Notes: generated by a model not told the origin, from the sequence alone. A stretch of 64,000 nucleotides of DNA from Deltaproteobacteria bacterium (GCA_016937015.1 JAFGWT010000161.1:11130-75129), one strand, 5' to 3'. Shown: positions 9,072-36,237, numbered from the stretch's first letter. A program made the numbers and translations.

Positions 9072-9306
9072 TGATGTACAGGGTAGGGTTTACAGGTACG
9101 GAAAGCAATTCATTTTTTATCGGATTTCTACGCGTGGTTGGCCATTTTGCATTAAAAAAGGCTGCCATTTGCTATATTATACAGTGTTGTAAATATGTAG
9201 AGTGGGTACTTCAGGATTAGGATTGGCCTGAGATTGTTTTCAGCAATGGGGGCATCGATTGGGGTGGATGGTCAGGACACTGAGCGAACTCAAAAAAAAG
9301 GTGGCG

Positions 9307-19854: not shown

Positions 19855-21657
19855 GTGCTGCAGAAAGGCAGGAAGAGAATGATTCGTTTTTCTCATGCAC
19901 ACATTGTCCTTGTGATTCTATTGCTCTTTGGTTGCAAGACAGGCAGTGTGAATGAAGATACTTTAGGGAATGGCAGCTTGAGGGTTTCGGCGAAAAACAA
20001 CTCTGCGAGCAAAACACAACCAGAGGTCGGCACAACAAATGATCTCAGCGACGAGAATAGTGCGGCTCAAACTCCTGATTACGCGGGTTCGCCGCGCAAA
20101 CAGGATGAGACCATTAAAGCCGATATTATTTTTAACATACGCACCAATGCTCGGAAACATCAGATTTCGCCGTACATTTATGGGATTAATCATCCTCAAT
20201 GGGGTCCCCGTCCCCGAGGCATAACGCTGGTGCGAAATGGCGGAAATCGGCACACTGCATACAACTGGGAAAACAATGCATCTCATGCCGGGGTGGACTA
20301 CTATAACCAGAACGACGATTATCTTGGAAATCCCAATGTACCGGGTGAAAATCGAGTCGAGTTTATAAAAAAAGCTTTTTCTCACGGCGCATCTGCAATG
20401 GTGACGATTCCAATTCTTGGATACGTGGCTTCTGATGGTAAAACCAAAGGCGATGTGAATCAGACACCCAATTACATGAGCACACGGTTTTATGTGTCAA
20501 AGGCGCGTAAAGGGGCGCCGTTTTCGATGACACCGGATTTGAGTGACAAGGTCGTTTATCAGGACGAGTTTGTGAATTTTTTGGAAAAATTGTTTCCCGA
20601 TGCCAGAACTGGCGCAAATAACGAAATTTTCTATTCCCTCGACAACGAACCGGGATTGTGGGCCACGACGCATCCGCGACTTCGCGGTGCTGAGAGCGGC
20701 AATCAAGGAAAACCGGTTACATATGCAGAGCTGATTAAAAAGACAATCGAGTACGCGGCTGCAATTAAAGACAACTCGCCCAACGCGAAAATTTTTGGTC
20801 CCGTGTTGTATGGATTTGCTGCGTTTGAGAATCTTCAGTCCGCACCGGATGCGAATGGTAGAGATTTTATTGAGTTTTATTTGCAGCAGATGCAACAGGC
20901 CGAAAAGAAAGAGGGGCGGCGTCTGGTGGATGTACTCGATGTGCACTGGTATCCTGAGGTAAATGTGCCGAAGGTTGGCAAGAATATTACTTCGACTACT
21001 GCTTTTCCTGAACTTGTTGCCGAGCGAATTCAGGCACCGCGTTCTCTGTGGGATGAGGATTATATGGAAAAAAGTTGGATTTCACAGCGTTATCTGAATG
21101 AGCCAATTGCCTTGTTACCTCGCCTGCAAAAGAAAATTGACAAATATTATCCGGGTACAAAGATTGCCATTACTGAGTATTATTATGGAGGCGGTAACGA
21201 TATTTCTGGGGCCATTGCCCAAGCTGATGTGCTGGGTATTTTCGGTCGTGAGAATGTGTTTGCAGCAACTTTGTGGAAATTGGCCGAGAATAACGATTTC
21301 ATCTGGGGCGCGTTTGAAATGTTTACATCATATGATCAAAAACAGGGAAGATTTGGTGATTTATCAGTTGAGGCAACGTGTTCAGATGTTGTCAATTATT
21401 CCATTTACGCGGCGTTGGACAGTGGGAATCCGGGACGAATGACGATAGTATTGATCAACAAAGCTGAAAAATCTGTCACAGCCAGCCTGGACGTTGTTCA
21501 TGATCGCCTGTTCCAAAAAGCGGATGTGTATCAGATAACAGCAAAAGACTCAAACCCAAGGAAAGCTGATTCTATTTCCATTAAAAAGGAGAATGCCTTT
21601 GAGTATACATTGCCCCCGCGCAGTATAAGCCTTTTTGAGCTTACAGTCCAAGGCTAG
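19855..21657 (+). CDS. Glycoside hydrolase family 44 (endo-beta-1,4-glucanase/xyloglucanase-like) lipoprotein
   Basis: Long collinear similarity to GH44 catalytic domains recalled from memory: ISPYIYG, GGNRHTAYNWENNASHAG, SLDNEPGLWATTHPR (acid/base Glu codon 20647-20649), FGPVLYGFAAFENLQSAPD, VLDVHWYPE, RIQAPRSLWD, YYPGTKIAITEYYYGGG (nucleophile Glu codon 21175-21177), IAQADVLGIFG. The likely start is ATG 19879 (MIRFSHAHIVLVILLLFGC, lipobox) with AGGAAG upstream. Confidence 0.85.
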   Translation: MLQKGRKRMIRFSHAHIVLVILLLFGCKTGSVNEDTLGNGSLRVSAKNNSASKTQPEVGTTNDLSDENSAAQTPDYAGSPRKQDETIKADIIFNIRTNARKHQISPYIYGINHPQWGPRPRGITLVRNGGNRHTAYNWENNASHAGVDYYNQNDDYLGNPNVPGENRVEFIKKAFSHGASAMVTIPILGYVASDGKTKGDVNQTPNYMSTRFYVSKARKGAPFSMTPDLSDKVVYQDEFVNFLEKLFPDARTGANNEIFYSLDNEPGLWATTHPRLRGAESGNQGKPVTYAELIKKTIEYAAAIKDNSPNAKIFGPVLYGFAAFENLQSAPDANGRDFIEFYLQQMQQAEKKEGRRLVDVLDVHWYPEVNVPKVGKNITSTTAFPELVAERIQAPRSLWDEDYMEKSWISQRYLNEPIALLPRLQKKIDKYYPGTKIAITEYYYGGGNDISGAIAQADVLGIFGRENVFAATLWKLAENNDFIWGAFEMFTSYDQKQGRFGDLSVEATCSDVVNYSIYAALDSGNPGRMTIVLINKAEKSVTASLDVVHDRLFQKADVYQITAKDSNPRKADSISIKKENAFEYTLPPRSISLFELTVQG

Positions 21658-22163
21658 AAAAGCTTTCGTATCCTGGCTGCGATCACGGCCAAAAATGCAA
21701 CACTCAGTGCGCTAAATTCAATTACCCAGTTTAATTGTACGCCATTTCTGTCACGATACAAAAAAGCATCAATTGCGTGAAGCGACGTTGAACGCACCAG
21801 CGAAAATGCAAATAACAAAACGAAAACAGCGAGGATAAACTGCTGAATTCGAGACCAGTTAAACCGCTTCGCCAATACGAAAAGTACGACCATGGAAACA
21901 ATACAAAGGATTGCAATGACAGCGAGTGTCTTTAATTGTAATTCAGCGCGCGAAACATACCAGTGGTTATAGAACGCGTCTTTCTTTAGAAAACGGGTGA
22001 TTTCACTTGTTAATTTAAATTGCTTGTTTAAAGCAAGCACGATAGCGAAAAAACTGAGTATGCTCCACGGATATTTGTTGCTGGATTTTCGTGTTATTAG
22101 AATTAACAGGAAAAAAATTACCCAGTAAATGGCGATACTTCCCCACCAGATAAAGTCATTCAT
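21654..22163 (-). CDS. Small polytopic membrane protein, paralog B (unknown family)
   Basis: The likely start is ATG 22163 (MNDFIWWGSIAIYWVIFF). It has 4-5 TM segments and shares the LALNKQFKL and VQLNWVIEF motifs with the upstream paralog. Confidence 0.5.
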   Translation of the reverse strand: MNDFIWWGSIAIYWVIFFLLILITRKSSNKYPWSILSFFAIVLALNKQFKLTSEITRFLKKDAFYNHWYVSRAELQLKTLAVIAILCIVSMVVLFVLAKRFNWSRIQQFILAVFVLLFAFSLVRSTSLHAIDAFLYRDRNGVQLNWVIEFSALSVAFLAVIAARIRKLF

Positions 22164-22761
22164 TTTTTCTTTGCTTTCTCCTGCCGGTGGCAATATTGAC
22201 GATGGCAGCGGTTGCAAGAGTAAGCGCACCCAAAATTTCTATGAGCCAGTTGAGTTTTAGTCCGCCTGTAAACACTGACAGTTTAGGCATTCCAACGCCA
22301 TAAAATGTACCAGCTCTGACGAGCACAAAACGCACTATCATTAACGCGCCAAGCATCAGAATCACGTATTTGCGCCACGTTTTTCGAATACGCCACAGGA
22401 TCCATATCAGACCACCCAAGCTGATTATTCCCATCCCCAACAGAAAATATTTTTGAGATCGTTTTCCCAGCTCATATATATCCCAGTGTTTCGCCAGCAG
22501 TTTCATCACCTGAGTAAACAGTGTCTGCAAATCCAGCTGTTTATTTACTGCCAGAAATAGAAGTATAGTACTGATAAACCACCAGATGAATCGATGCGTT
22601 TTCAAATCCTTGTTTCCGAAAATATGCCTTGCACGAACGGCACACAGCGCGCATGCCACTGATGCCAACATGTACGTAAAAACGGTTGCCCAGGCAAGGG
22701 GATATGGGTCTCCAACTTTGGGACGCCAATGTATTTGGGAAAGTATTTCAAAAATATCCAT
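22156..22761 (-). CDS. Small polytopic membrane protein, paralog A (unknown family)
   Basis: 201 aa with 5 TM segments. Motifs LAVNKQLDL and LKLNWLIEI align with paralog B. An 8-nt overlap with paralog B suggests co-translation. Confidence 0.5.
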   Translation of the reverse strand: MDIFEILSQIHWRPKVGDPYPLAWATVFTYMLASVACALCAVRARHIFGNKDLKTHRFIWWFISTILLFLAVNKQLDLQTLFTQVMKLLAKHWDIYELGKRSQKYFLLGMGIISLGGLIWILWRIRKTWRKYVILMLGALMIVRFVLVRAGTFYGVGMPKLSVFTGGLKLNWLIEILGALTLATAAIVNIATGRRKQRKNE

Positions 22762-22922: not shown

Positions 22923-24899
22923 TTATACATGGTCAGCAATAGTGACGGTGCGCAGTTCCGGAGAAAGTGGGGAGACTTTGATTGTTGGCGGTGCATCCAG
23001 CAGGTATTGCGTTGAGAGTAAGAAGCAAATGAGCATGTTGTCGCGATACCCCAGTTTCTCTGGCACGTTGCGCTCGTATTTTGAGATGAACCGATTGACC
23101 ATCGTACTGTCGAAAACGCCATAATCTTTTAATTTTTTTTCTGAAAGCAAATCCGACGCGCGTTCGGAAAGGGTTCCGCCTGCGAAAAATGATTTTAAAT
23201 CCGGCGCCATATACGGCAGTTTCGGCCGGTCAATAATCGACGCGGGTATGTCTTTTCTGAATGTTTCCCGCAGAATGTGCTTCTGCGACAACACATGCAT
23301 TTTGTAGGCAGCGGGATAATGGAAAGACTGTTCAATGAGACGGTGATCCAGGAACGGATAGCGGCCTTCGACACTGTGTGCCATTGACATTCTGTCTCCT
23401 TGTGAAGAGAGCAGATAACCCGACAAAAGTGTGCGCATCTCCATGTATTGGTTTCGCTGAAGCAGTGACCAGTCGTAATAATCTTTCGGAAGTGTTTCTT
23501 TTACATCTGCTAAAAGTTTTTCTTTATCCAGAACGACCTTTCGGTCACGGTTGAAGTAATTTTTTAAAATGGAATTGTTGCTGACACGGATGTTCAATGA
23601 TGCCATTTCGTTATCATAGCTATCGAGAAACCCTTCGTAGTACATGCGCATGAGACCGAACTGACGTGGGTCATTGAAGTGTTTCAAATGAGGGTACAGC
23701 CTTTTGATCAGTTGCGGTCTCAGCTTTGACTCGGGATGCTTGGCCCAGAATTGCAGCAACTTCAATTCCTTGTATGAGTCGTATCCCCAGAGCACTTCAT
23801 CAGATGCTTCTCCTGTCAGCACCACTTTGAAACCGGCTTTTCTGACTGCGTCTGAAAGTAGATAAAGCGGCACGGGTGCAGTTCGAAATAAGGGCCTGTC
23901 TGTATGGTGGATTACATTGTAAAAGTTTTCCTCTACCATTTTATATGAGATTTTTAACTCGTAATGTTCAGAACTAAGCTGACGAATCATGTCCTGCTGG
24001 TACGAGGATTCGTCAAAATCGTCATCTTCAAACGCCACAGAAAACGTTTGAAGACGCTCACGATTGATTTGCGACACAAGATGTGTAATGACCGACGAAT
24101 CGATGCCGCCGCTCAAATATGCGCCAACCGGAACGTCGCTGCGTAATCGCAAACGAGTCGCGTCTTTGAGCGTTTCACGGAGTTCGGCACATGCCGCATT
24201 GAAGTTCGCTGGCAGATCGGGAGTGCTTTCGCCAAGGGAGTAGTACCGTTCCTGCACACTCAATCCATCGGTTGAGTAAATTTCGTAGGTGCCACCTGGG
24301 ACGCTGCGAATGTTTTTATATACCGTTTTGTCGGCCAGCGTATTCCAGAACAGGGCATGCTCAAAAAGATTGTCCATGTCCAGTTCCCGGCGGTAACCGG
24401 GAATGGGGTCGAATGCTTTAATCTCTGAAGCGAAATAGATGGCCCCCTGGTGATTCAAAACATAGAGCGGTCGAATAGCGTAACGGTCGCGTGCAATAAT
24501 CAGTCGTTTCTCCTGTCTGTCCCAGAGCAGGAAGGCAAACTGTCCATTGAATTTTTTTACCGCGTCCATCCCCCATTGCTCATACGCTTTGATAATGACT
24601 TCGGTATCGCAGGTGGTGTGAAAAGTGGCGCCCAGTGATTCGAGCTCAGCACGCAATTCGATGTGGTTATAGACCTCGCCATTAAAAGAAATAACATATT
24701 TGTCGGTCATCATGGGTTGATGACCGCCGGAAAGGTCGACGATTGAAAGTCGGACATGACCCAAGTGGATGCCGTCGGAACTGTAAGTCCCCCAGCCATC
24801 CGGTCCCCGGTGCTCGATGGTGGCGAGCATTCTTTCGATTAGCCTTGTATCTGTACTGGCACTGAATGCCTTATTTAAAATTCCTGCGATACCACACAT
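22923..24899 (-). CDS. asnB: Asparagine synthetase B family glutamine-dependent amidotransferase
   Basis: 658 aa. It begins MCGIAGI (Ntn nucleophile Cys2), has GH(Q)PM-type glutaminase motifs and the PP-loop YLSGGIDSSVITHLV. It lies 17 nt downstream of the ACP gene on the same strand. Confidence 0.9.
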   Translation of the reverse strand: MCGIAGILNKAFSASTDTRLIERMLATIEHRGPDGWGTYSSDGIHLGHVRLSIVDLSGGHQPMMTDKYVISFNGEVYNHIELRAELESLGATFHTTCDTEVIIKAYEQWGMDAVKKFNGQFAFLLWDRQEKRLIIARDRYAIRPLYVLNHQGAIYFASEIKAFDPIPGYRRELDMDNLFEHALFWNTLADKTVYKNIRSVPGGTYEIYSTDGLSVQERYYSLGESTPDLPANFNAACAELRETLKDATRLRLRSDVPVGAYLSGGIDSSVITHLVSQINRERLQTFSVAFEDDDFDESSYQQDMIRQLSSEHYELKISYKMVEENFYNVIHHTDRPLFRTAPVPLYLLSDAVRKAGFKVVLTGEASDEVLWGYDSYKELKLLQFWAKHPESKLRPQLIKRLYPHLKHFNDPRQFGLMRMYYEGFLDSYDNEMASLNIRVSNNSILKNYFNRDRKVVLDKEKLLADVKETLPKDYYDWSLLQRNQYMEMRTLLSGYLLSSQGDRMSMAHSVEGRYPFLDHRLIEQSFHYPAAYKMHVLSQKHILRETFRKDIPASIIDRPKLPYMAPDLKSFFAGGTLSERASDLLSEKKLKDYGVFDSTMVNRFISKYERNVPEKLGYRDNMLICFLLSTQYLLDAPPTIKVSPLSPELRTVTIADHV

Positions 24900-24916
24900 A
24901 AATCTCTCCGCTGAAC

Positions 24917-25174
24917 TTATTTGATTTCACCGCTCATTTTTAACTCGATGAATCGTTCCATTTTGTGAATGGATCCAAAGTATTCACGAATCATGTCGTT
25001 TTCCGTCACCTTGATGCCAAACTTTTTTTCCATGAACGCGGCGATTTCCACCAGTCCAAAAGAATCAATGACGCCTTGGTCAATCAGTGAATCACTGTGG
25101 TCGAAATCGTCTCGCTGAACAAAGAAACTGTTGCAAACAAAGTCCAGCAACGCTTCCTGGATGTCAGATGCCAT
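24917..25174 (-). CDS. Stand-alone acyl/peptidyl carrier protein
   Basis: 85 aa from ATG 25174 (MASDIQEALLDF...). It has the phosphopantetheine site GVIDSFGLVEI, with the Ser codon at 25061-25063. The extra 21 N-terminal residues in track ORF 24917..25237 are probably not translated. Confidence 0.8.
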   Translation of the reverse strand: MASDIQEALLDFVCNSFFVQRDDFDHSDSLIDQGVIDSFGLVEIAAFMEKKFGIKVTENDMIREYFGSIHKMERFIELKMSGEIK

Positions 25175-25573
25175 AAATCTAACCCCTTTCATTCTGTATA
25201 CGGTTTGGCAAAAGCAAACCTGCAATCCTACTAACAATTACTATAGTATGCACGCCTGTTCTGCCTGCCAATGCTTTTGTTGGCGCAATCTTATGCATAA
25301 TTCTGCAACTGTGTACACAGGAAACTGTCTCAAAATTGTTTGGCACATATATGTAACGTGCTGTTTTTATGGCATTTCGCTGATGTCACCGGTATCGTGG
25401 ATTGACACTGGGGCAGAGGATGATAAAGTTCGACCTCAAAGAGAACTCATACAAATCTAACAGATTTGCCAGCAGCGCGCAGTTGAGAAATCAAAAGTGA
25501 TGCGATCGCGGCAGATATATTAAAGTGGTGCGTCTGGGAGTATTCCGAGTGCGTATCATGGACGGGTTTACTG

Positions 25574-26911
25574 GTGATAACAGTGCACACAAAAATTAAT
25601 TTAACAAATATCGTAATGGACGCTGACGCATCAAGGGGAACTTATGCCGTTGACCTGCCTCAAACCAAAGCAAGGCTTGAAATACAGGATATTGCCAATC
25701 GCCAAAACGTGGTGGGGCAATTTGCACTGGTGTCCGAGACGGCGCCTGGCACCTTTGAGGCCGTGCGGGACCCTCTGGGGATAGGAAAGATGTTTTATAC
25801 GGTACTGGAAAGCGGTGAGCTGCAATTTTCGCCCCAATGGCCCAAACTGTTGCAGTATAAAACACCCGTTTTTTCACTTCCCAGAGGCCAGCATGTTCGA
25901 TTGTCTGCAGACGGCACAAGGACGCTTATCAATGATTTTACACCTCGGACCGATCTGGCGGAGAAGCTCGTCAATCCCGACATAAAAACAGCCGCACATT
26001 TCACAGACAGTCCCCAGGGTAAACTGTTTCAATCCCTGCTTCAAGAGAGAGTTGATGCGGCGTTCTCAGTCCTGGCGGCACTCGAAGACAGTGGTTTCAG
26101 TGTATACATTGCACTTTCAGGCGGACTGGATAGCGCTATTATTGCCAATGCGGCAGTAAAACATCTCAGGCACCCGGTTGCCTGCACACTGGATCTTGGC
26201 AAATCTGAAGATGCTGAAAAATCTGCTCTCATAACCAGTGCGATTGGAATACCACAGGAGATATTCGCCACGAGTGAGACCGAAATTCTGGACGCTGTTG
26301 CTGTGTCACCATCACTTTGTCAGGATTATCGTGATTTTAATGTTCACTGTACCGCGCTCAATGTGCTGCTTGCCAAAAACATTCAGCGCCTGGCGAAATC
26401 CCACGGTGTTCCTGAAGGTAAAGCCATCGTGCTTACCGGGGATACCATGAATGAGCTGACATGTGACTACCACGCCGAGGAAGTGGATGGCACCATTTAC
26501 TATCGATTGCCAAGAGTGAATTCGAAAATGCTGCAGCAAATGCTTGTTGGGGGGCTTGATACATCGGATCGGGAATTGTTGCCGTTTTTGAATTATGGCC
26601 TGTCATGCATCCAACCCTATGCGGTTGCTTATGACCTCTATACAGCGCTGCCTGAAAATGTGTTGGAAATTGAAGACATTAAAAGAGCATTGAACGGTCA
26701 TCTGGTACCCGGCAAAGTAATGGAGATGCTGCCCAAAAGCAAACTGCGTGCTCAGGTTGGCAGCAAGGAAAGTATGGGCGTTCTGGGACTCTGTCATCAG
26801 CGAGGTATCAGTGAAAGGAATTTTTTGGATAACCTTATTGGCAAGCCGGATTCCGAAAAGAAGCTGGTCCCAATAACTATGGGCAGATGGGAAACAGAAA
26901 AATTCAAATGA
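25574..26911 (+). CDS. AsnB-homologous ATP-dependent amide-forming enzyme lacking the N-terminal Cys nucleophile (beta-lactam-synthetase/CarA-like architecture)
   Basis: RDPLGIGKMFY resembles the AsnB N-domain motif, and IALSGGLDSAII is the PP-loop. Neither candidate start (GTG 25574, ATG 25616) is followed by Cys, so no Ntn glutaminase is expected. Confidence 0.65.
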   Translation: MITVHTKINLTNIVMDADASRGTYAVDLPQTKARLEIQDIANRQNVVGQFALVSETAPGTFEAVRDPLGIGKMFYTVLESGELQFSPQWPKLLQYKTPVFSLPRGQHVRLSADGTRTLINDFTPRTDLAEKLVNPDIKTAAHFTDSPQGKLFQSLLQERVDAAFSVLAALEDSGFSVYIALSGGLDSAIIANAAVKHLRHPVACTLDLGKSEDAEKSALITSAIGIPQEIFATSETEILDAVAVSPSLCQDYRDFNVHCTALNVLLAKNIQRLAKSHGVPEGKAIVLTGDTMNELTCDYHAEEVDGTIYYRLPRVNSKMLQQMLVGGLDTSDRELLPFLNYGLSCIQPYAVAYDLYTALPENVLEIEDIKRALNGHLVPGKVMEMLPKSKLRAQVGSKESMGVLGLCHQRGISERNFLDNLIGKPDSEKKLVPITMGRWETEKFK

Positions 26912-26920
26912 GTTATTGGT

Positions 26921-29900
26921 CTATTTTTTTCGTCGACGCTGTTGAACCATCCGTCGCTTTTCTGCACGCTTGTGAACCTCACTAAAATCCAATGACGAAT
27001 CCCGCCCAATCTCATCGAGATACCGGCTTTGCTCCCGGATACAGGTATATCGAAAAAGAAATACGGGCGACAATGTCTGGCAAAACGTTTCGTTGAGCCT
27101 ATTTGCCAGATGAGCAGCCAGAATCGATGTGCCGCCTACGTCAAAAAAGTTCCGTTCAACCCCAATTTCGTCAAGCTTCAGTATTTCTTTCCAAATGTCG
27201 AGGACTTCCATCTCTGTATCTGTGGTTGCTTTTTGACCGGATGAAGAATTTTGAATACGTGCCTGGATAGACGGCAATCGGCGTCTATCGACCTTACCGT
27301 TTGAGGACAATGGGATCTCGTTTACGGTAACAAGCACGTCCGGTATCATATAGGATGGCAGTCTGTGGGCTAACTGATGGCGAACGTGCGATTCATCCAG
27401 TGGCACTGAATCAGAGAGTACAATGTAGGCCACCAACTGGGTGTCGGCTGTATCGCTGTTGATTACAGTGACAACCTGTTGGATGTTTTCAATTTCTTCT
27501 CTGATGGCCACATTGATTTCTTCCAATTCAATTCGAAGACCGTGGATTTTAACCTGTCCATCCATTCGACTGATATATTCAATGTTTCCGTCCGGCCTAA
27601 AACGTGCCCAGTCACCGGTCTTGTAGAGTCTGCCTTTACCTGTGATGTCAAAAGGATCTGCTATGAAGCGTTCAGCCGTTAAATCTGAACGGTTGACATA
27701 CCCCCTTGCCACCTGAACGCCACCGATATGCAGCTCCCCAGGAACACCGATGGGAACAGGATTCAGGTAGGCGTCTAAAATATATATCTGGGTATTGGCA
27801 ATGGCTCGGCCAATGGGAACTGAAGCTTTTGAGTCCTCTATGTGACATTCCCAGCTGGTGACGTCCACAGCCGCTTCTGTTGGGCCATAGAGATTGTACA
27901 GGCCGACGTTGGAGAGAGAAGAAAGACATTTGTCCTGCAATGGCCGCCCCAGTGCCTCCCCACTGCAGATAATCCGTTTAAGACTCTCCCTGGCGGTCGC
28001 CAGTGACGGGCTGCCCAGAAAAACTTCGAGCATGGAAGGCACAAAATGAATCGTTGAGACTTTAAACTGGCCAATCAATTCACCAAGGGCAGCCGGGTCT
28101 TTATGGGCTTCTGGGGGTGCGACTGCAAGACGCGCACCGGATACAAACGGCCAGAAAAATTCCCATACAGAAACGTCAAAGGTGAAGGGAGTCTTTTGCA
28201 GCACCACATCATCGGAATTCAGCTGAAACGCTTCCTGCATCCAATTAATTCGATTGCAAATGCCGGCGTGACCGTTCAACACGCCTTTGGGACGTCCTGT
28301 CGATCCGGAGGTGAATATAATATACGCATCATCCGCTTCTGTAATACCAACATCAGGATTTTCAACGGACATCGCATTCAGCTTTTCCTGAATTTTGTCG
28401 AGAAAAACCGTGCATGTGCTGTTGTCGCTTTCAATTTCAACGCCTGATACCTGCAACACAAATGGCACCTCTGCATCTGCAAGCATTTGTTTCTTTCGAT
28501 CAGATGGAAAATCCGGTTCCATAGGCACATAGATGCCGCCAGCTTTAACAATAGCGTGCAACGAGATGACCATTTCCAGTGAGCGTTTCAGGTGCACCCC
28601 GATGCGGGTTCCTTTTTTAACGCCCATATCCATGAGGCAGTGCGCAAGCTGGTTACATTTTGCATTGAATTCACGGTATGTCAGCGCCCTTTTCTCTGGC
28701 ATTTCAAGTGCGATATTATCTGGCGTTTTGATTGCCTGGCGTTCAAGAAACTGGTGGAGACCATCAATTGGAGGATACGCTTTGCGGGTATCATTCCATT
28801 GCTTCACTATCAAATTGTATTCATTACTTTTAAACAGGGAGACTTCATGGATTTTCAGATTCGGATTCTCTGTAACCGCTGCAATCGCCTGTTTAAAATG
28901 CGAGACCAGTCGTTTTGCCGTTTCATTCTCCAACAGATCCGAAGTGTACTCGAAATGACCGCGAAGTCCGTCATCAGACAGCCACAGGTTCATTGAAAAA
29001 TCCAGCTGTGCCCCGCCGGCGTGAATCTCAATAATTTGAGAGTTAACGCCATCGAGAGCCAGAGACATCGGGTGTTCGAAGGTAAACAGGGTTTGAAATA
29101 ATGGATTGCGACTCGAGTCGCGCGGCGGCGCGATAGCATCAACAATCTGCGTGAATGGCAGGGATTGATGACGATGACAAATGAGCATTGCCTTTCGGAC
29201 CGATTGCAACAGCGCCGAGAATGTCATGTCTTCTGTTGCTTTTACTGTTAAGGGGACGATATTCATAAAGCATCCCATTGTGTCCCTGTGTTCGGGGCGA
29301 ACCCGGTTGGTGAGTGGAATGCCAACAGTAATGACGTCGTCACGGGTATACTTTCGAAGCAGTAATAAATAACAGGCCAGCAACACCAGATATGGTTGGG
29401 TTACTTCCTTCTGACAAAATGAACGAAGATTTTTCAGTTCTTCGGTGGATCCCGATATCGTTACTGTTGCTCCTTTGAAAGAGGGGCTGGATGGACGCGT
29501 AAAATCACAGGGAAAATCCAGGCCCTCCGACATGTTTTGATATTCCGCCACCCAAAATGCTTTTTCCTTTATCCCAGGCTCATCGTTGAGCCAGTTCGAA
29601 TACCAGTCGACGTAATCCTGGTATGTGCTCTCAGCGGACAACCCGTCCGCTTTTCCAGTTTTTAAGAGGGAATTGTAGGTTTGGGAGATTGCCTGCCCAA
29701 GCATGTCCTTGGTTTTCAGGTCAATAACACTGTGGTGGGCCGACAGCGTTAGATATGCATTGCCATTTTGAACCGGGGCCAGCAATGCTCTCAACAGCGG
29801 TCCAGTCGCCAGATTGAACGGTTTGGATGCGAATGCTTTAACGGCATTCAGTGCGGCTTCATCGGTGTTGTATGTATCGGTTGGTGTTTCAAGGGACGTT

Positions 29901-30127
29901 GGGGGATTGCTGTCTTCGACTACTTCGAGAGTGCCATCCTTAAAGACGAATCGCGATGAGAAGATTGGATGTGATTCGATGACCAGTTGGAATGCTTTTT
30001 TTAAGACCTGGGTCTGCAAGCCCGCATCCAGTTTGAATGTTGATACAATATTATAGGCAACACTATTGGGCGCCATTTGCGCCTGCAACCAATATTGCCG
30101 CTGCAAATCCGAGGCTTTGTAATTCAT
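26921..30127 (-). CDS. Single-module NRPS, C-A-T (A domain read as Ser-type)
   Basis: C domain: aa 1-440, HHSVIDL at 29717-29737. A-domain core motifs: LTYREFN, YIIFTSGSTGRPKGV, FDVSVWEFF, NLYGPTEA, GELHIGG, YKTGD, GQVKIHGLRIELEEI, LPSYMIP, NGKVDRR. T domain: FFDVGGTSIL, Ser codon at 27125-27127. No TE, R or E domain. Confidence 0.95.
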   Translation of the reverse strand: MNYKASDLQRQYWLQAQMAPNSVAYNIVSTFKLDAGLQTQVLKKAFQLVIESHPIFSSRFVFKDGTLEVVEDSNPPTSLETPTDTYNTDEAALNAVKAFASKPFNLATGPLLRALLAPVQNGNAYLTLSAHHSVIDLKTKDMLGQAISQTYNSLLKTGKADGLSAESTYQDYVDWYSNWLNDEPGIKEKAFWVAEYQNMSEGLDFPCDFTRPSSPSFKGATVTISGSTEELKNLRSFCQKEVTQPYLVLLACYLLLLRKYTRDDVITVGIPLTNRVRPEHRDTMGCFMNIVPLTVKATEDMTFSALLQSVRKAMLICHRHQSLPFTQIVDAIAPPRDSSRNPLFQTLFTFEHPMSLALDGVNSQIIEIHAGGAQLDFSMNLWLSDDGLRGHFEYTSDLLENETAKRLVSHFKQAIAAVTENPNLKIHEVSLFKSNEYNLIVKQWNDTRKAYPPIDGLHQFLERQAIKTPDNIALEMPEKRALTYREFNAKCNQLAHCLMDMGVKKGTRIGVHLKRSLEMVISLHAIVKAGGIYVPMEPDFPSDRKKQMLADAEVPFVLQVSGVEIESDNSTCTVFLDKIQEKLNAMSVENPDVGITEADDAYIIFTSGSTGRPKGVLNGHAGICNRINWMQEAFQLNSDDVVLQKTPFTFDVSVWEFFWPFVSGARLAVAPPEAHKDPAALGELIGQFKVSTIHFVPSMLEVFLGSPSLATARESLKRIICSGEALGRPLQDKCLSSLSNVGLYNLYGPTEAAVDVTSWECHIEDSKASVPIGRAIANTQIYILDAYLNPVPIGVPGELHIGGVQVARGYVNRSDLTAERFIADPFDITGKGRLYKTGDWARFRPDGNIEYISRMDGQVKIHGLRIELEEINVAIREEIENIQQVVTVINSDTADTQLVAYIVLSDSVPLDESHVRHQLAHRLPSYMIPDVLVTVNEIPLSSNGKVDRRRLPSIQARIQNSSSGQKATTDTEMEVLDIWKEILKLDEIGVERNFFDVGGTSILAAHLANRLNETFCQTLSPVFLFRYTCIREQSRYLDEIGRDSSLDFSEVHKRAEKRRMVQQRRRKK

Positions 30128-30334
30128 GGTTGTTCTCTTTGTTTCCCGGTTGTTGCAATAACGAAATTATTTGTTGTAAATGCAGGCAGCATTCAATATG
30201 AGAATAATTAAATCAAGAGTTTTAACGGAAAAATCTGCAAATTTGATAGCCACTGCCTATATCAGTTACTATATATCCAGCAGACGAATGATATAAGCCC
30301 GGCAGGTGGGCTTTGGGGCGACCAGGCAATAGGT

Positions 30335-33300
30335 ATGAAAACAGAAAAAGAAAGCGATTTTACAGTTCACGCATCGAAGATTCAGGAGCAGTTTTGGTTT
30401 ATTAGCGAAATAACACCTGAAAATTCTGCATACAATATTATTTCATGGTTTGACGGGCGTGGTTCATTTCATCCAGAAGCGGCTCAACACGCACTTACCA
30501 GAGTGGTTGAACGGCATCATGCGTTGCGATGCGCACTGCAAACAGAAAATGGCCAAATCAGGCAAGTCATTTCAAAAGCCGCGAACGTTTGTATTGGCAC
30601 CCATGACCTTTGTGCATTGTATAAAGCCAATCCTGACGAGGCACGGGATATGATGGTTCAAGTGGCGAGAAAGCCCTTTGACCTGACCGTTTTCCCTTTG
30701 CTGAGGGCCGATCTGTTCACTCTGGAAAAAAACCGGTTTGTTTTTTTGCTGGTGTTCCATCACGCGATTGTTGATTTGCATACCAAGAGTGTTTTTTCAA
30801 AAGAGTTCAGCGCGTTTTATAATTCATTTGTAGCGAATCAACCGGAACCTGCATTTCCGCCGGCTGTTCAATACACAGAATATGTGAACTGGCAGCAATC
30901 CTGGCTGCAAACCGATGAACCGACGAAAATGGCAGAAACCTGGAAACGGGAATTGGAATTGCAATCTGGCGTGCTGAATCTGCCCGCTGATTATCCCCGT
31001 AAAAGTGTTGCCGGACTAAAAGGCAATACCGTCGATTTCACTTTCAGCAACGAGTTGTTTATAAAGGTTCAAAAGTACTGTGAGCAAAATCGACTTGATA
31101 AATTTTTACTTCTGCTCACCGCATATCTGGTGCTACTGTACAAACATACCAATCAATCGGACATTACAGTTGGCGTGCCACTGTCCAACCGACGACATCG
31201 CGATTTCAAGGATGTGATTGGCTGTTTTGTCAATGTGATGCCACTTGCGTTTAGTGTTCAGCCTGAAATGACAGTGGCTGATTTGCTCAAGCAGGTGCGC
31301 CACAGAATGCTCCTTGCACATCGAAACCAGGAACTTCCAATTCAACATTTGTTGAAGATTTTAAAGCCGGTGAGCAACGCGGGAACCAATCCCATATATC
31401 AAACCGCCTTTACGGTGGAACCGCCCATGAATATGGAGCTGTTGGATGTGGAAATGATACCGGTAAAGCTTCATCACGGCGGTGCGCAACTGGATTTGTT
31501 TATGTCTTTCTGGGACGTGACATCATCCATTTCCGGCTACCTTGAATATGATACAGGTCTATTTCGCACAGAGACCGTCGAAGGAATGGTTCGACGATTT
31601 CAAACATTGGTGGCTCGCTTTATGGACGCCGTCGATACGCGAGTTGCAGATGTCGAGATTCTGGACGCCGATGAACGGCACTGGCTGATCAGCAAAGTAA
31701 ATCAGACTCAATGTGACTTGCCCGACCTTCGGTTGCATGAACTCGTATCGATGCAGGTTCAAAAATCACCCGATAAGATTGCCTTCAAGTGTGGGCAATC
31801 GCAACTGTCATATGGCGATTTGCACGTGAAGTCGAACAGACTGGCCCATTACCTAAGGAAGAATGGCGTCACCAAAGGTTCTCTGGTTGGCGTTTATCTG
31901 TACCGTTCCACGGAAATGATGGTTGCTATTCTGGCTATTTTGAAGGCTGGCGCGGCATATGTCCCGCTTGACCCAAAATTCCCGAATGACCGGTTGAACT
32001 ATATTGTCGATGTCACCAATATACCGGTTTTGATTACACAAACTTCGCTCGCCGGCAATCTGCAGATAAAGGACGCCACGGCGTTTTGTATTGACGGGGA
32101 TGCGGCCCAACTCGACAGCGAATCAATTGAAAATCTGTCAGTTGAATTGGATGCGGCGGATCGCGCGTACGTTCTGTTTACCTCTGGTTCAACGGGGAAA
32201 CCCAAGGGAATTCCCATTCATCACGAAGCGGTGGTAAACTTTTTACTCTCCATGGCAAAACAGCCGGGAATATCTTCAGAAGATGTGCTGCTGGCGGTGA
32301 CAACACTGTCTTTTGACATTAGCATATTAGAATTGTTTTTACCGGTGATACAGGGAGCGACTGTGGTTATCGCATCTTCTGATGACGCGGTCAATGGTGA
32401 GGCTCTGCTTCGGTTAATCGAGGATGAGCAAATTACCGTTTTGCAAGGGACGCCTTCCAGCTGGCAAATACTGTTGGGGGCGGGACTTGGGAAACATTCA
32501 AAGTTGAAGATTCTGTGTGGTGGCGAAGCGATGCCCCAAAAACTCTCTGCGCAATTGTGCGATGTCAGTTCGGATGTCTGGAATATGTATGGTCCCACGG
32601 AAACGACGGTATGGTCCACTTGCTGCAAGGTTGAAAAAGATGCGCCCATTCGCATTGGCGCACCCATCGACAATACGCAGCTCTATATCGTGGATGAGCA
32701 GCTTCGGCTGGTGCCCCCGGGCGTTGCCGGCGAGCTGGTGATAGGGGGGGCAGGGGTTAGCCATGGTTACTTAAATCGCCCCGATTTGAACAAAACACAG
32801 TTTGGTGATGATCCGTTTCAGGAACATTTTGCCAACCGCATATACAGAACCGGCGATCTGGCACGATATCATTTTGATGGCTCTCTCGAACATCTCGGAC
32901 GAACGGATTCTCAAATCAAACTTCGAGGATTCCGCATTGAATTAAGCGAGATAGAAAGTGTGTTGTCCGGTTTTCCTCAGGTCAGGCAATGTGCGGTGGT
33001 ACTGGCCAGGAAGTCGTCGAATGACAGTCGTCTGGTTGCGTATGTGACGCATTCGTCAGCGGCTGCGCTATCCGAGTCGGAAATGATGGATTTTTTACGA
33101 AAAGCGCTGCCTGACTACATGGTCCCAACTTTTTTTGAACAATTGGATGCGATGCCGATGACTGCCAATGGCAAAATTGACCGCAAACGGCTTCCGGCGC
33201 CAACCTGGTCTGGAAGTTTGTCAGCCGCCCCTGAAAATCCGCCTGCGAATGAGACAGAGGGGATTCTGTTGTCAATTTGGGCATCGGTGATAGGAATCAG

Positions 33301-33559
33301 TAATATTGGCATGCATGATAATTTTTTCGATGTTGGTGGCAATTCCCTCATGGTTCTGGAGCTTACCAGTCAGGTGGAATCCCGTTTGGGGAAAAAAATA
33401 ACGGTAACGGACTTCTTTCAGTATCCAACAATATCCGCGCTTTCCAAATACCTGATCGGCGATACGGATGATTCAAACAGTCTTTCTTCGGTTGCTCGAA
33501 GCCGTGCGGAAAAAAGAAATAAAGCCAGATTGAAACGCACCGGAGGCAGGCTTACATAG
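30335..33559 (+). CDS. Single-module NRPS, C-A-T (A domain read as Gly-type)
   Basis: C domain with FHHAIVDL. A-domain core motifs: LSYGDLH, YVLFTSGSTGKPKGI, FDISILELF, NMYGPTET, GELVIGG, YRTGD, SQIKLRGFRIELSEI, LPDYMVP, NGKIDRK. T domain: FFDVGGNSLM, Ser codon at 33344-33346. No TE, R or E domain. Confidence 0.95.
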   Translation: MKTEKESDFTVHASKIQEQFWFISEITPENSAYNIISWFDGRGSFHPEAAQHALTRVVERHHALRCALQTENGQIRQVISKAANVCIGTHDLCALYKANPDEARDMMVQVARKPFDLTVFPLLRADLFTLEKNRFVFLLVFHHAIVDLHTKSVFSKEFSAFYNSFVANQPEPAFPPAVQYTEYVNWQQSWLQTDEPTKMAETWKRELELQSGVLNLPADYPRKSVAGLKGNTVDFTFSNELFIKVQKYCEQNRLDKFLLLLTAYLVLLYKHTNQSDITVGVPLSNRRHRDFKDVIGCFVNVMPLAFSVQPEMTVADLLKQVRHRMLLAHRNQELPIQHLLKILKPVSNAGTNPIYQTAFTVEPPMNMELLDVEMIPVKLHHGGAQLDLFMSFWDVTSSISGYLEYDTGLFRTETVEGMVRRFQTLVARFMDAVDTRVADVEILDADERHWLISKVNQTQCDLPDLRLHELVSMQVQKSPDKIAFKCGQSQLSYGDLHVKSNRLAHYLRKNGVTKGSLVGVYLYRSTEMMVAILAILKAGAAYVPLDPKFPNDRLNYIVDVTNIPVLITQTSLAGNLQIKDATAFCIDGDAAQLDSESIENLSVELDAADRAYVLFTSGSTGKPKGIPIHHEAVVNFLLSMAKQPGISSEDVLLAVTTLSFDISILELFLPVIQGATVVIASSDDAVNGEALLRLIEDEQITVLQGTPSSWQILLGAGLGKHSKLKILCGGEAMPQKLSAQLCDVSSDVWNMYGPTETTVWSTCCKVEKDAPIRIGAPIDNTQLYIVDEQLRLVPPGVAGELVIGGAGVSHGYLNRPDLNKTQFGDDPFQEHFANRIYRTGDLARYHFDGSLEHLGRTDSQIKLRGFRIELSEIESVLSGFPQVRQCAVVLARKSSNDSRLVAYVTHSSAAALSESEMMDFLRKALPDYMVPTFFEQLDAMPMTANGKIDRKRLPAPTWSGSLSAAPENPPANETEGILLSIWASVIGISNIGMHDNFFDVGGNSLMVLELTSQVESRLGKKITVTDFFQYPTISALSKYLIGDTDDSNSLSSVARSRAEKRNKARLKRTGGRLT

Positions 33560-33586
33560 GCCGTCTGCCGTCTGCCGTCTGCCGCC
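33560..33586. repeat. Heptanucleotide microsatellite (GCCGTCT)x3 + GCCGCC, immediately after the NRPS stop codon
   Basis: Read directly: TAG(33557-33559) GCCGTCT GCCGTCT GCCGTCT GCCGCC. Confidence 0.9.
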
Positions 33587-33735
33587 AGCAATTGTGGTAT
33601 TGTGAGGCATCTATCTGTTTCCCCATATGCTCAAGGCATAGACAGAAAAGGCAGCGACGCTTCTATAAAAGAAAAAGCGGTGTGCGTACTTCCCCCGACT
33701 GCGTTCTGACCGTGGTAATGGCGTAAGGACGCAGA

Positions 33736-35077
33736 TTGTGTGGTGTTTTCTTTTATCATAGACACGGATACAGATACGAATGCCGATACCAACACGGGAG
33801 ACATTCCGATGCCAACACCGGGGACGATACCGATACCAACACCAGTGTGGGGAACAGTGCAGAAACAGAGGGAGACACCGGGCCCGACACTGAAAGCGAT
33901 ACGGAAGTCGATACAGGAACCGAATCCGGCATGGACACTGGCACTGATACGGGCTCCGATACGGGCTCCGATTCTGACGCCGATAAGGGCAGTGATACGG
34001 GCGCAGACATCGGTACAGACACCGGCTCCGATGCCGGCGGCGACACTGGCACTGATATGGGTACAGACACGGGCATCGATTCCGGCGATGATACGGGCTC
34101 TGACACCGGTACGGACGCGGGTACAGAAACCGGTACCGATATTGTATGCGGAGTTCCCACAGACTTTGTCTGGACAGCTGATGCGAATCTAATATTCCCG
34201 GCAGCGGGCTGCAACGAAATGAAGGAACCCACACTTTTTTTACAACGGCAGCTGGCACATGCATGCCACTACATGGAACGTGGACGTTTGGGATATTACT
34301 CATTTGAGTTTTACGGACTGGACAGCCGCAGACAGTGCGCCTCGGGATATGATGAACACTAATCCCAATATCGATACGTATCATGCGTCCCCCCCCCCCC
34401 AGTTGTTTTTTTTGAGCCGCAGAATCTGTGGTATCTGGTTTTCCAGAATTCGCCACCGGCATATGTGACCTCCACCGATCCGGGGGATGTATCCACCTGG
34501 TCTGCGATCCCGCAATTTATGCCTAATCCAACCTTCCTTTCGGATAACGGAGATGCTGACATGGACTACTGGGTAATTTGTGATGACACCAATTGCTATC
34601 TGTTTTTCACCGCGTTTAATGGCAGTCTGTACAGGGCCCAAACGCCGATTGGTGATTTTCCGAGCGGATTTTCGGAAGCCAATACGGTGGAGGTGATGAC
34701 GGATTCTCAGTACGCGCTGTTCACCGGCACCGCCGTCTACAATATGCAGGGGACGAATACCTATCTTCTGCTGGTGGCAGGATTCGACGGCGATGGGGAA
34801 TATTACCGGGCCTGGACCTCCGATGCCCTCAATGGCACTTGGACCGATTTGGCAAGCCAGCAACGACAATTGGTTTGCATCAGTGGCCAATGTAACCGGC
34901 CCGGCATGGATTTCCACCGGCATCTCTCAGGGCGAAATCCCGCGCACCAATCCTGACCAGACCATGACCATCAGTACCTGTAACATGCAGTTTGTGTTCA
35001 CATCCCGCGAAGAGACCCTGTTGGACACGGATGTTGTCGTCCACTATAATACAGGCCTTCTCATCGACGCGTGTTGA
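33736..35077 (+). pseudogene. GH62-like alpha-L-arabinofuranosidase gene remnant: 5'-truncated, D/T/G-rich linker, at least 4 frame changes
   Basis: Pieces in frames +2/+1/+2/+1/+2 join into a GH62-like sequence: VPTDFVWT...KEPTLF|FYNGSWHMHATT...LSFTDWTAADSAP...HASPPPQLFF|FEPQNLWYLVFQ...YWVICDDTNCYLFF...YYRAWTSDALNGTWTDLA|SNDNWFAS...ISQGEIPRTNPDQTMTISTCNMQF. Two shifts sit at T-runs (34235-34241 and 34406-34413, the latter next to a C12 run at 34389-34400). No signal peptide or start codon precedes the linker. Confidence 0.75.
33758..34140 (+). repeat. Low-complexity coding repeat (Asp/Thr/Gly/Ser-rich linker, GAYACNGGY-type units)
   Basis: It translates as DTGTESGMDTGTDTGSDTGSDSDADKGSDTGADIGTDTGSDAGGDTGTDMGTDTGIDSGDDTGSDTGTDAGTETGTD. 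It also generates long spurious ORFs in the other frames and on the other strand (33611..34462, 33740..34192, 33756..34232). Confidence 0.85.
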
Positions 35078-35099
35078 CAAAAGAATTCGACACAGTTTC

Positions 35100-35899
35100 A
35101 TGACCATATCCGGATTGCCATACTTTAAGCGCAATATTAGTATTGATTACTCAGGGGCTCAAACCGCCACTTCCAGCCAGAAGGGGTTACGGGTGTACAT
35201 GGCCAACGCCACCTCGCCGCCGGTTGAGGTCCTTCCTCCTCTGAAATCAAAAAAGAAATACTGGACGCGGCTGGGGATTGTAAAATGGCTGGTGGCCACG
35301 CTTTTCGAAGATGTTCCAACGATTGCGGGGATAGACCACTCGTTTTCGTTTCCGTTGCGGTATTTCGAAAAGCACGGGATTGCGTCTGACTGGAACTGTT
35401 TTCTGGATGACTTTCAATCCCACTGGACCACTGATGGCGATCACGTCACTGTTGAGGATGTGCGCAACGGGCGGCTGGGCAATGGGGCTGCCCGCACCGG
35501 GAATTCCCGCTGGCGCCGCATCGCCGAAGAGCGGTAACGGGCCGAATCGGTTTTCATTTTGATGTACCCGGGGCCGTGGCCAAATCAACCCATGCCGGTT
35601 TGCCCTGGTTGCGGTTTATCTGTAAACAGGTAGGCGAGAAGGTTCATTTCTGGCCTTTTGATGGATGGAAGATACCAACCGGATCATCCGCACTTGTTGA
35701 GATTTATCCATCACTCTGCAGCAAAAACTACCTGCCCCGGAACCGCACTGCAGATCAGCATGACGCTTTTTCGGCTGCTGCCTGGCTTCGCGATACGGAT
35801 ACGTCCGGACATTTTAACACATATCTGCATCCTTTACTCGACACTCAAACCCGCACAGTCGCCAAAGATATTGAAGGATGGATACTGGGAGTGGAGTGA
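35100..35899 (+). pseudogene. Conserved-hypothetical gene split by a probable 1-nt frameshift (track ORFs 34992..35537 and 35576..35899)
   Basis: The likely start is ATG 35100 (MTISGLPYFKRNISIDYSGAQT). The first frame ends ...RWRRIAEER-TAA at 35535-35537. Frame +2 is already open from before 35470 and reads RRRAVTGRIGFHFDVPGAVAKSTHAGLPWLRF..., so the two ORFs overlap as expected for one interrupted gene. Function unknown. Confidence 0.5.
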
Positions 35900-36237
35900 A
35901 ATTTTTTACTGTTTGCCCTTAAAAAATTTTCGTTGGCTGACATGTATGTCAGTGTATATGTATCGTTAAGCAATTGTTGTGCGTTGTTTTGCGTTGAATC
36001 ATCCTGCTTCTTTTTTCAGCTAGTGCGCATCAGCGCGTTGGTGCTTTTCCGATACGACCATAATTATAAATAAGAGTGACGGAGATCGATAAAACGCTCT
36101 TGAGTTTCTCTCCGCCCTATAATAATTTATTTCAACTTACATACTAGCGCACCATTACGTTCGAGGGGCGACGAATGTTGCTTTAAATTCCAGTTAGATA
36201 TTTGTCACAACACCGTGTTTTACTATCGTAATTCATC

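Follow-up and report, generated by a model that had tools for sequence, protein, structure and literature searches.

The 64,000-nucleotide stretch of Deltaproteobacteria bacterium DNA analysed here (GCA_016937015.1 JAFGWT010000161.1:11130-75129; hereafter the window) holds at 22923-33559 a five-gene islet encoding an amidotransferase of the asparagine synthetase family (AsnB), a stand-alone acyl carrier protein (ACP), a second, AsnB-related enzyme of the PP-loop type (AsnBrel), and two single-module non-ribosomal peptide synthetases (NRPSs), each composed of condensation (C), adenylation (A) and thiolation (T) domains. Equivalent genes recur in other bacteria as a cassette, whose module numbering is used below for the two synthetases. 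The islet comprises the following features:

22923-24899, minus strand: AsnB, glutamine-hydrolysing amidotransferase of the asparagine synthetase family, 658 aa (open reading frame (ORF) list and Pfam)
24917-25174, minus strand: stand-alone carrier protein (ACP), 85 aa (Pfam PP-binding and orthologue alignment)
25175-25573, no strand: divergent intergenic region separating ACP/AsnB from AsnBrel (read from the sequence)
25574-26911, plus strand: AsnB-related PP-loop enzyme (AsnBrel), 445 aa (weak Pfam matches and AlphaFold model)
26921-30127, minus strand: NRPS1, orthologue of cassette module 2, C-A-T, 1068 aa (Pfam and A-domain code)
30128-30334, no strand: 207-nt intergenic region from which the two NRPS genes diverge (ORF coordinates)
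30335-33559, plus strand: NRPS2, orthologue of cassette module 1, C-A-T, 1074 aa (Pfam and A-domain code)

The five genes, their coordinates and the 17-nt (ACP-AsnB), 9-nt (convergent ends of AsnBrel and NRPS1) and 207-nt spacings reported in a first-pass annotation of this DNA were reproduced in the ORF list; the Pfam scan returned the same domain orders (both NRPSs with C first and T last; an AsnB homologue without its Cys), and scans of the flanks found the exopolysaccharide (EPS) locus and the giant adhesin-like gene between which the islet had been placed. All five ORFs are uninterrupted, two of them spanning 3.2 kb each, and the catalytic motifs of the five proteins are retained (Cys2, both PP-loops, HHxxxD, the A-domain Lys, GGxS and DSxG). 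The genes are split into four alternately oriented transcription units, whereas those of the relatives are largely co-directional. Base composition of the islet is not distinct from that of its flanks; a sigma-70-like match at 30243-30272 is weak, and promoter and terminator scans of the islet gave matches at or below the frequency in shuffled sequence.

AsnB matches the Pfam families GATase_7 (7.5e-45) and Asn_synthase (3.5e-85), begins with MCGIAG (Cys2 intact), retains an intact SGGIDS PP-loop, and passes the generic glutamine-hydrolysing asparagine synthase model TIGR01536 with 484 bits, over its cutoff. The nearest solved structures are E. coli AsnB and the hydroxyamidotransferase TsnB9 (7ylz, 7e-60), an AsnB-fold enzyme acting on a non-aspartate carboxylate. 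More specific identities were rejected: AsnB reaches 408.5 bits against the 816.9 cutoff of the XrtA amidotransferase model TIGR03108, in a window without an exosortase or PEP-CTERM/VPLPA tail; 242.7 against 525 for a lasso peptide cyclase (NF033535), a model that the 445-aa protein does not match, with no lasso B-protein or precursor seen among the window ORFs; and a score under the curated cutoff for the NAGGN amidotransferase. The adjacent ACP matches PP-binding (7.4e-05), and alignment with seven orthologues shows its first codon to be the ATG at 25174 rather than the TTG at 25237 to which the mechanical ORF extends; the phosphopantetheine-bearing serine of the IDSFG motif is invariant among the ACP and those seven orthologues. 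AsnB orthologues of the cassettes are 51-60% identical to the window protein, and AsnB-ACP adjacency is kept in at least 13 loci, both in cassettes and in trio loci without an NRPS, which argues that the substrate of AsnB is ACP-bound.

NRPS1 (C ~28808-30121, A ~27293-28747, T ~27017-27205) and NRPS2 (C ~30365-31681, A ~31754-33175, T ~33266-33454) match Condensation at 7e-78 and 8e-79 and AMP-binding at 8.5e-85 and 2.6e-87 in Pfam, and exceed the 317 cutoff of TIGR01733 with 421 and 430 bits. The C-domain motif HHxxxDG keeps both His residues and the Asp, as looked for in an elongation module, with Gly replaced by Leu here (HHSVIDL in NRPS1, HHAIVDL in NRPS2) and in all orthologues; the A-domain core motifs, the code-terminal Lys (Lys517 equivalent) and the T-domain GGxS serine (GGTS in NRPS1, GGNS in NRPS2) are present in both modules. 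With the Stachelhaus positions placed by motif and alignment, the A-domain codes are DVWHISLVDK for NRPS1 (Ser-like, close to the Ser code) and DILQLGMVWK for NRPS2 (Gly), in agreement with the Ser/Gly specificity first called. Downstream of its T domain, every C-A-T protein of the cassettes has an Arg/Lys-rich C-terminal tail of 20-30 residues with a similar pattern (...RAxxxRxxxxxRRR; for example, RAEKRRMVQQRRRKK), found in the window at ~26921-27010 (NRPS1) and ~33470-33559 (NRPS2), which looks like a docking element or helix and would imply a downstream partner. A Logan contig of 5293 bp from SRR13394436 (L062) is 100% identical to window positions 29095-34387, so the organism of the window is also present in that run. 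This contig was the sole return of an NRPS2 look-up, and exact-sequence look-ups of AsnBrel and of a window GT4 gene gave no match.

Nine further loci, belonging to Desulfobulbaceae, Teredinibacter turnerae and several metagenomes (named loci: L002, L003, L046, L047, L048, one 21-kb contig, L060 and L061), combine an AsnB-ACP pair with a PP-loop partner and C-A-T modules; tblastn with the window proteins confirmed the assignments. Neighbourhoods were found from AsnBrel homologues of 44-68% identity, and an NRPS2 query gave three further loci; a scan of a genome collection returned four close loci, swamped by the generic SGGLDS pattern, and a metagenome scan with a trimmed alignment returned eleven mostly short loci. 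Three gene orders illustrate the arrangement, in which KS, AT and TE denote ketosynthase, acyltransferase and thioesterase domains of a polyketide synthase (PKS) and GT a glycosyltransferase family:

L002, Desulfobulbaceae: glycosyltransferases, AsnBrel, KS-AT-ACP-TE, AsnB, ACP, C-A-T, C-A-T
L003, T. turnerae: Wzx/Wzy/GT2, Ig-like surface protein, AsnBrel, AsnB, ACP, esterase, KS-AT-ACP-TE, two Acyl_transf_3, C-A-T
L060: Poly_export, PEP-CTERM protein, epimerase, Bac_transf, EpsH, EpsI, AsnB, ACP, PP-loop enzyme, C-A-T, C-A-T, KS-AT-ACP-TE, FGE-sulfatase, esterase, WecG

The cassette esterase is PHB-depolymerase-like. Successive genes of L060 overlap stop to start, making this locus a colinear operon, and the colinear order in the relatives is AsnB-ACP-(PP-loop)-CAT(Gly)-CAT(Ser-like)-KS-AT-ACP-TE. 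The ACP-adjacent module has a Gly code in every cassette (for instance, L002, L046, L048, L060 and L061), and DVWHISLVDK is matched exactly in the second modules L060_b and L061_c. A KS-AT-ACP-TE gene is present in nine of nine relatives, lying in three of them between the ACP/AsnB unit and AsnBrel; it has an intact Cys-His-His KS triad, an HAFH (malonyl) or HPFH motif in the AT, a GxSxG motif in the TE and no reductive domains, and contains the sole AT and KS of these loci. Given this module in all nine, the relatives read as a conventional hybrid line, predicted to take an ACP-bound starter through Gly, a Ser-like residue and one malonyl extension to the TE. The first-pass annotation had described the islet as not a canonical assembly line, a description that fits the window copy alone, since the relatives carry KS-AT-ACP-TE and L060 is a single colinear operon; its own reservation, that its proposal would be contradicted if a TE or additional modules completed a conventional pathway, is thus borne out in the relatives. 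An expanded variant is present in L061 (13250-19872), where an inserted methyltransferase-T didomain protein and a C-AT-C-A-T protein with a TubC_N docking domain separate the Gly module from the PKS, the last A domain having the code DVWHISLVDK.

Co-occurrence of the islet genes in other genomes, which had been named as a check, is found across phyla in these nine loci, and co-inheritance in such distant bacteria supports a functional link among the five genes. The literature searched yielded no account of the cassette; the T. turnerae PKS-NRPS ‘region 8’/GCF_4, listed without a product, may be the L003 locus. While its parts are familiar in kind, the cassette is unfamiliar in how they are combined, in its genomic setting and in its AsnB-related partner.

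The islet has the defining parts of this cassette, namely, an AsnB-ACP pair, a PP-loop partner, a Gly-code module, a DVWHISLVDK module and a polysaccharide context, and is the only one of the ten without a terminal KS-AT-ACP-TE gene. The evidence leans, by a modest amount, towards its being a rearranged copy, without the release module, of a conserved carrier-protein assembly line that resides within surface-polysaccharide loci and whose product serves the neighbouring surface glycan or surface proteins.

The first-pass annotation left the coupling of AsnB to the ACP unexplained, for which the best precedent is the amidation of a malonyl- or succinyl-ACP starter. In gladiolin biosynthesis GbnB loads succinyl onto GbnA and GbnC amidates it, and MgsC/MgsD of iso-migrastatin and other glutarimides have been proposed to act likewise with malonyl (bioRxiv 10.64898/2026.04.24.720606). 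These systems are likened to the islet by gene arrangement, in that a stand-alone ACP beside a glutamine-dependent AsnB homologue feeds an assembly line, and the relatives also have an AT and a KS; as this pairing is a signature of starter amidation, an amidated-starter route is proposed. The free ACP would first be loaded with a small dicarboxyl unit, malonyl or succinyl, in the window perhaps by a housekeeping or distant AT. AsnB, with glutamine and ATP, would then amidate the distal carboxylate on the ACP (as GbnC does on GbnA, and as has been proposed for MgsD on MgsC), giving a unit of the malonamyl or succinamyl type; this capped acyl group would pass from the ACP onto Gly-S-T through the C domain of the Gly module, and the Ser-like module would extend it to acyl-Gly-Ser-S-T. 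In the relatives, the minimal malonyl-specific KS-AT-ACP-TE would add a C2 unit and release the chain; in the window, release could proceed by a distant PKS-TE, by hydrolysis or by transfer to a glycan acceptor, an Acyl_transf_3 gene being present in the locus at 582-1640. Instead of being a free antibiotic, the product would most probably decorate the adjacent exopolysaccharide/surface-protein system or act together with it, a surface-glycan destination being proposed because the cassettes are consistently embedded between EPS, exosortase and surface-protein genes. Unlike the Gbn and Mgs loci, islet-type loci always hold a second, glutaminase-less PP-loop enzyme and are polysaccharide rather than antibiotic loci.

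Several observations weigh against this reading. The identity of the starter is proposed by analogy, and in the GbnC and MgsD systems the acceptor is a KS, not an NRPS C domain as in the islet, and a dedicated loading AT is present, whereas the window has neither such an AT nor a KS. A sugar uronate, the type of substrate amidated by WbpS (PMC7468200), could be the target of AsnB instead. Stand-alone AsnBrel homologues in L001 and L004-L006 have no ACP or NRPS nearby, though they are close homologues. Five orthologous PKS queries found no KS-AT-ACP-TE in the 64-kb window, even as fragments at E<1, beyond trivial T-domain similarity; the window likewise has no AT or esterase ORF, leaving chain release and ACP loading without an assigned enzyme there, and no exosortase homologue, PEP-CTERM/VPLPA-type tail or sorting-signal ORF. 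The gene order is scrambled over four transcription units, and the region abutting NRPS2 (33611-36100, between that gene and the giant gene) is decayed, with ~2.5 kb of broken reading frames; together, these features indicate that the window copy could be a remnant.

Had inversions and loss of the PKS-TE left five genes that make no released product and are heading to decay, the absence from the window of a module found in nine of nine relatives, and the alternating orientation of genes that form a single operon in L060, would be explained. The decayed neighbour fits the same account: a low-complexity ORF of TGSD/TGTD repeats occupies 33736-34362, GH62 fragments are scattered across several frames at ~34259-35077 (Pfam GH62 5.5e-28 for 34465-34956, covering profile positions 105-236 only), and the adjacent ORFs at 34992-35537 and 35576-35899 have no family match and may be one broken gene. 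Such a remnant is nevertheless considered improbable, as the five ORFs, two of them 3.2 kb long, are intact, all the catalytic motifs checked are kept, and the specificity codes are the same as those of distant relatives; moreover, the 64 kb viewed are part of a genome in which a PKS-TE could sit elsewhere. ORF and domain scans of the 64-kb window found no TE, reductase, epimerase, MbtH, phosphopantetheinyl transferase (PPTase) or PKS, and thus no chain-releasing enzyme, bearing out the first-pass annotation for the TE, reductase, epimerase and MbtH-like gene; remnants of an esterase, WbuX, FGE or exosortase are likewise absent from it at E<1. Aminoacylation of the Dlt type was rejected, with DltA and DltC models under cutoff and no MBOAT or DltD in Pfam scans of the submitted window ORFs of at least 150 aa.

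The free ACP had earlier suggested lipoinitiation, with an acyl starter delivered to a C domain; in this account the ACP would hand a fatty acyl group to the C domain of the Gly module, and the product, a free membrane lipid or surfactant, would be N-acyl-Gly or N-acyl-Gly-Ser. In the colinear relatives a C-starting module does immediately follow the ACP, and the C domain of NRPS2 matches that of Acinetobacter baumannii AB3403 (4zxh, 3e-34), a stand-alone Gly C-A-T-TE module that resembles those of the islet in being a single NRPS module starting with a C domain. AB3403 is glycine-activating and receives its substrate from a separately encoded carrier protein, and is not known to have an AsnB or PP-loop partner; it differs further in having its own TE, whereas the window modules stop after the T domain with a basic tail. 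The C-domain subtype, judged here by the proxy of similarity to solved C domains, points away from lipoinitiation. NRPS1 is nearest the C domains of TycC6, Txo1/2 and LgrA, and NRPS2 those of Txo1/2, a DhbF-like protein and TycC6; matches to elongation-type domains (TycC6, Txo, LgrA, FscG) range from 1e-33 to 1e-54, with TycC6/Txo at 1e-46 to 1e-54, against 5e-13 and 4e-15 for the starter-type SrfA-A C1 and 1e-6 for CDA C1. Both C domains therefore look LCL-like (elongation type) and do not resemble the starter (Cs) subtype, which weakens the earlier proposal. A lipoamino acid or lipodipeptide would, in addition, leave the conserved AsnB-ACP coupling without a role, no cassette contains a fatty acyl-AMP ligase or acyl-ACP synthetase, and the relatives add a ketide unit and a TE; such a product is accordingly regarded as unlikely.

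The partner shared by the cassettes and the amidated-starter route, AsnBrel, combines an SGGLDS synthetase domain with a shortened N-terminal domain that has no catalytic Cys, matching Asn_synthase/NAD_synthase weakly and no GATase domain in Pfam. In Foldseek its AlphaFold model (pLDDT 86, pTM 0.88) aligns best, across the two domains, with AsnB, carbapenam synthetase and beta-lactam synthetase (E ~1e-12, TM 0.5-0.6), and by this resemblance the modelled protein is placed among AsnB-fold enzymes with a dead glutaminase domain. Carbapenam and beta-lactam synthetases share with it the two-domain AsnB fold and the lack of an N-terminal catalytic Cys; they differ in sequence (15-19% identity), AsnBrel having a shorter N-terminal domain and motifs of its own (QDxRDFNVHC, TSDRE, KLRAQ), and no pathway to a beta-amino-acid substrate is evident. 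The family is small, with 118 clusters at E<=1e-30 among 1.84 billion representatives, and its invariants include SGGxDS, DxRDxNxH, TGDxxNE and KxRxQ. An Fe-S or Zn site was rejected because C259 is the sole Cys conserved family-wide and the family has no conserved cysteine cluster.

In L060 and L061 the position of AsnBrel is taken by a PP-loop enzyme of the WbuX-like kind, whose N-terminus bears a CxxC...CxxC motif (8948-9985 and 8555-9640, respectively); the two copies are 54% identical to each other and score 137-144 bits against the 203 cutoff for WbuX N-acetyl-sugar amidotransferases. This looks like non-orthologous displacement by another adenylating enzyme, and suggests a functional need for an adenylating partner. 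In the Spirochaetia metagenome-assembled genome (MAG) L010, a gene for an Sfp-type 4'-phosphopantetheinyl transferase (11179-11820, minus strand) overlaps by 4 nt at its end with a convergent stand-alone AsnBrel, an adjacency that suggests a link of AsnBrel to carrier proteins. AsnBrel is inferred to be a catalytically intact adenylating PP-loop protein linked to carrier-protein chemistry; its candidate roles are to load the ACP, to activate the carboxylate of a sugar or peptide, or to carry out a further amidation or a cyclisation.

AsnB, ACP and AsnBrel are also found without any NRPS or PKS. In L051-L053, L056 and L058 the three are consecutive in that order within glycan loci; L054, L055 and L057 have ACP-AsnBrel, with AsnB on the opposite strand where the contig reaches it. 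The AsnBrel relatives of these NRPS-free loci are 31-38% identical, and the surroundings of L052 include a carbamoyltransferase, Acyl_transf_3, GT2, a methyltransferase and a cadherin/FG-GAP protein. In MAGs of Polyangiaceae and Gemmatimonadota, a stand-alone adenylating enzyme is followed by AsnBrel and ACP, with a PLP aminotransferase also there; this adenylating enzyme scores 548 bits against the 592 cutoff of the ‘exosortase A system-associated acyl-CoA ligase’ model (TIGR03098). Together with the WbuX-like swap, these trio and pair loci indicate that the recurring element is a carrier protein with an adenylating PP-loop enzyme, usually accompanied by a glutamine-dependent AsnB, in glycan loci; the NRPS and PKS modules are an elaboration in one branch of an older trio.

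A comparable grouping of an ACP, an adenylating enzyme and AsnB-family genes in EPS loci is formed by the accessories of PEP-CTERM/exosortase systems (Haft's TIGR03098 ligase, an ACP and TIGR03108), and the likeness extends to the distant AsnBrel-ACP pairs beside the near-TIGR03098 ligase and to the cassettes beside XrtD/EpsH. The window differs from these accessories in its low AsnB score against TIGR03108 (408 vs 817) and in having no exosortase or PEP-CTERM protein; full C-A-T modules and a PKS are not known to belong to the described accessory set. The tie of the islet to polysaccharide and exosortase loci proposed in the first-pass annotation is seen in the neighbourhoods of the relatives, where cassettes are surrounded by glycosyltransferases, Wzx/Wzy, Bac_transf, WecG, UDP-glucose dehydrogenase, EpsH/EpsI and PEP-CTERM proteins. 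Among L046, L047 and L048, one cassette directly follows an XrtD-type exosortase/EpsI gene and another lies beside UDP-glucose dehydrogenase and a PEP-CTERM protein; EpsH/EpsI of L047 scores as XrtD with 532 bits against a cutoff of 400.

This setting also bears on a different role, raised in the first-pass annotation as transfer of carrier-bound amino acids onto the polysaccharide. T-bound Gly and/or Ser would be moved to a sugar within the EPS repeat unit, and AsnB would turn a uronic acid into a uronamide, giving an aminoacyl handle similar to the type IX ‘linking sugar’ and possibly a point of surface-protein attachment. The linking sugars of P. gingivalis and T. forsythia are 2-N-seryl-3-N-acetylglucuronamide and 2-N-glycyl-3-N-acetylmannuronic acid, with the uronamide made by the AsnB homologue WbpS, and the exosortase acceptor has been speculated to be a similar amino-acid-modified sugar (PMC7468200). 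The Wbp/Vim pathway (WbpS, VimA) thus resembles the islet in joining Ser or Gly to AsnB-family amidation in the making of a surface glycan (PMC7468200), and the cassettes adjoin exosortase/PEP-CTERM genes as well as Ig-like, cadherin-like and giant repeat surface proteins, with Acyl_transf_3 genes within or close to them. In the Wbp/Vim pathway, however, a FemAB-like transferase attaches the amino acid, amidation acts on a nucleotide-sugar uronate rather than an ACP thioester, and no ACP takes part. Modules that start with an intact C domain after an ACP would be predicted to produce N-capped amino acids rather than free amines, the relatives hand their chain to KS-AT-ACP-TE, AsnB-ACP adjacency favours an ACP-bound AsnB substrate, and the window has no exosortase or sorting signal; an aminoacyl handle of this kind is therefore given a low probability.

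The attachment target of PEP-CTERM substrates of exosortases has been described as an unidentified compound (PMC7468200), and Gly, Ser and amide chemistry beside XrtD-type exosortases offers a concrete candidate for that acceptor. It would be a long shot to propose that a capped Gly-Ser or aminoacyl handle on an exopolysaccharide or lipid carrier is the acceptor, or a needed cofactor, for exosortase-type surface-protein attachment, as a counterpart of the N-seryl/N-glycyl uronamide linking sugar of type IX systems, with AsnBrel as a new carrier-protein-directed adenylating enzyme that loads or modifies the ACP-bound unit.

A compact NRPS/PKS cassette wired into polysaccharide/exosortase loci across phyla means that mining tools may mislabel a surface-modification system as secondary metabolite biosynthesis. 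New PP-loop chemistry may be present in the 445-aa AsnBrel family, which is small and consistently linked to carrier proteins. The window copy is an atypical, possibly incomplete member of the cassette and, without a PKS-TE, forms a natural experiment on the ability of the first two modules to function when the release module is missing.

The upstream flank (582-22761) is a Wzx/Wzy-type EPS locus with Acyl_transf_3 (582-1640), GT4, several GT2, Wzy, Wzx, Poly_export, an EpsV-like co-polymerase and a glycoside hydrolase of family GH44. A GT2 domain fused to a serine-O-acetyltransferase-like hexapeptide domain is encoded at 2983-4635 (plus strand), scoring 324 bits with the Myxococcus-type EpsD model (cutoff 370) and 104 with EpsC (cutoff 150); the same two-domain layout recurs after the AsnBrel-ACP pair of Polyangiaceae L011 (11442-12974). 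The GH44 hydrolase (19855-21657, plus strand), with a signal-peptide/lipoprotein-type N-terminus by eye, may trim the polymer. Between the GH44 gene and AsnB lie adjacent genes for two multi-pass membrane proteins of 191 and 201 aa (21654-22229 and 22156-22761, minus strand), without a Pfam or NCBIfam match and apparently paralogous (...NKQ...LNW[VL]IE...). Downstream, an ORF open from 36104 past the end of the window at 64000 encodes more than 9299 aa with Big_7/TIG/LVIVD/Big_5 repeats. Large Ig-like, cadherin/FG-GAP or giant repeat surface proteins adjoin AsnB/ACP/PP-loop genes in unrelated organisms (L003, 7664-9760; L052, 10388-12292; window, 36104-64000), and in other loci small PEP-CTERM proteins occur in place of the large surface proteins.

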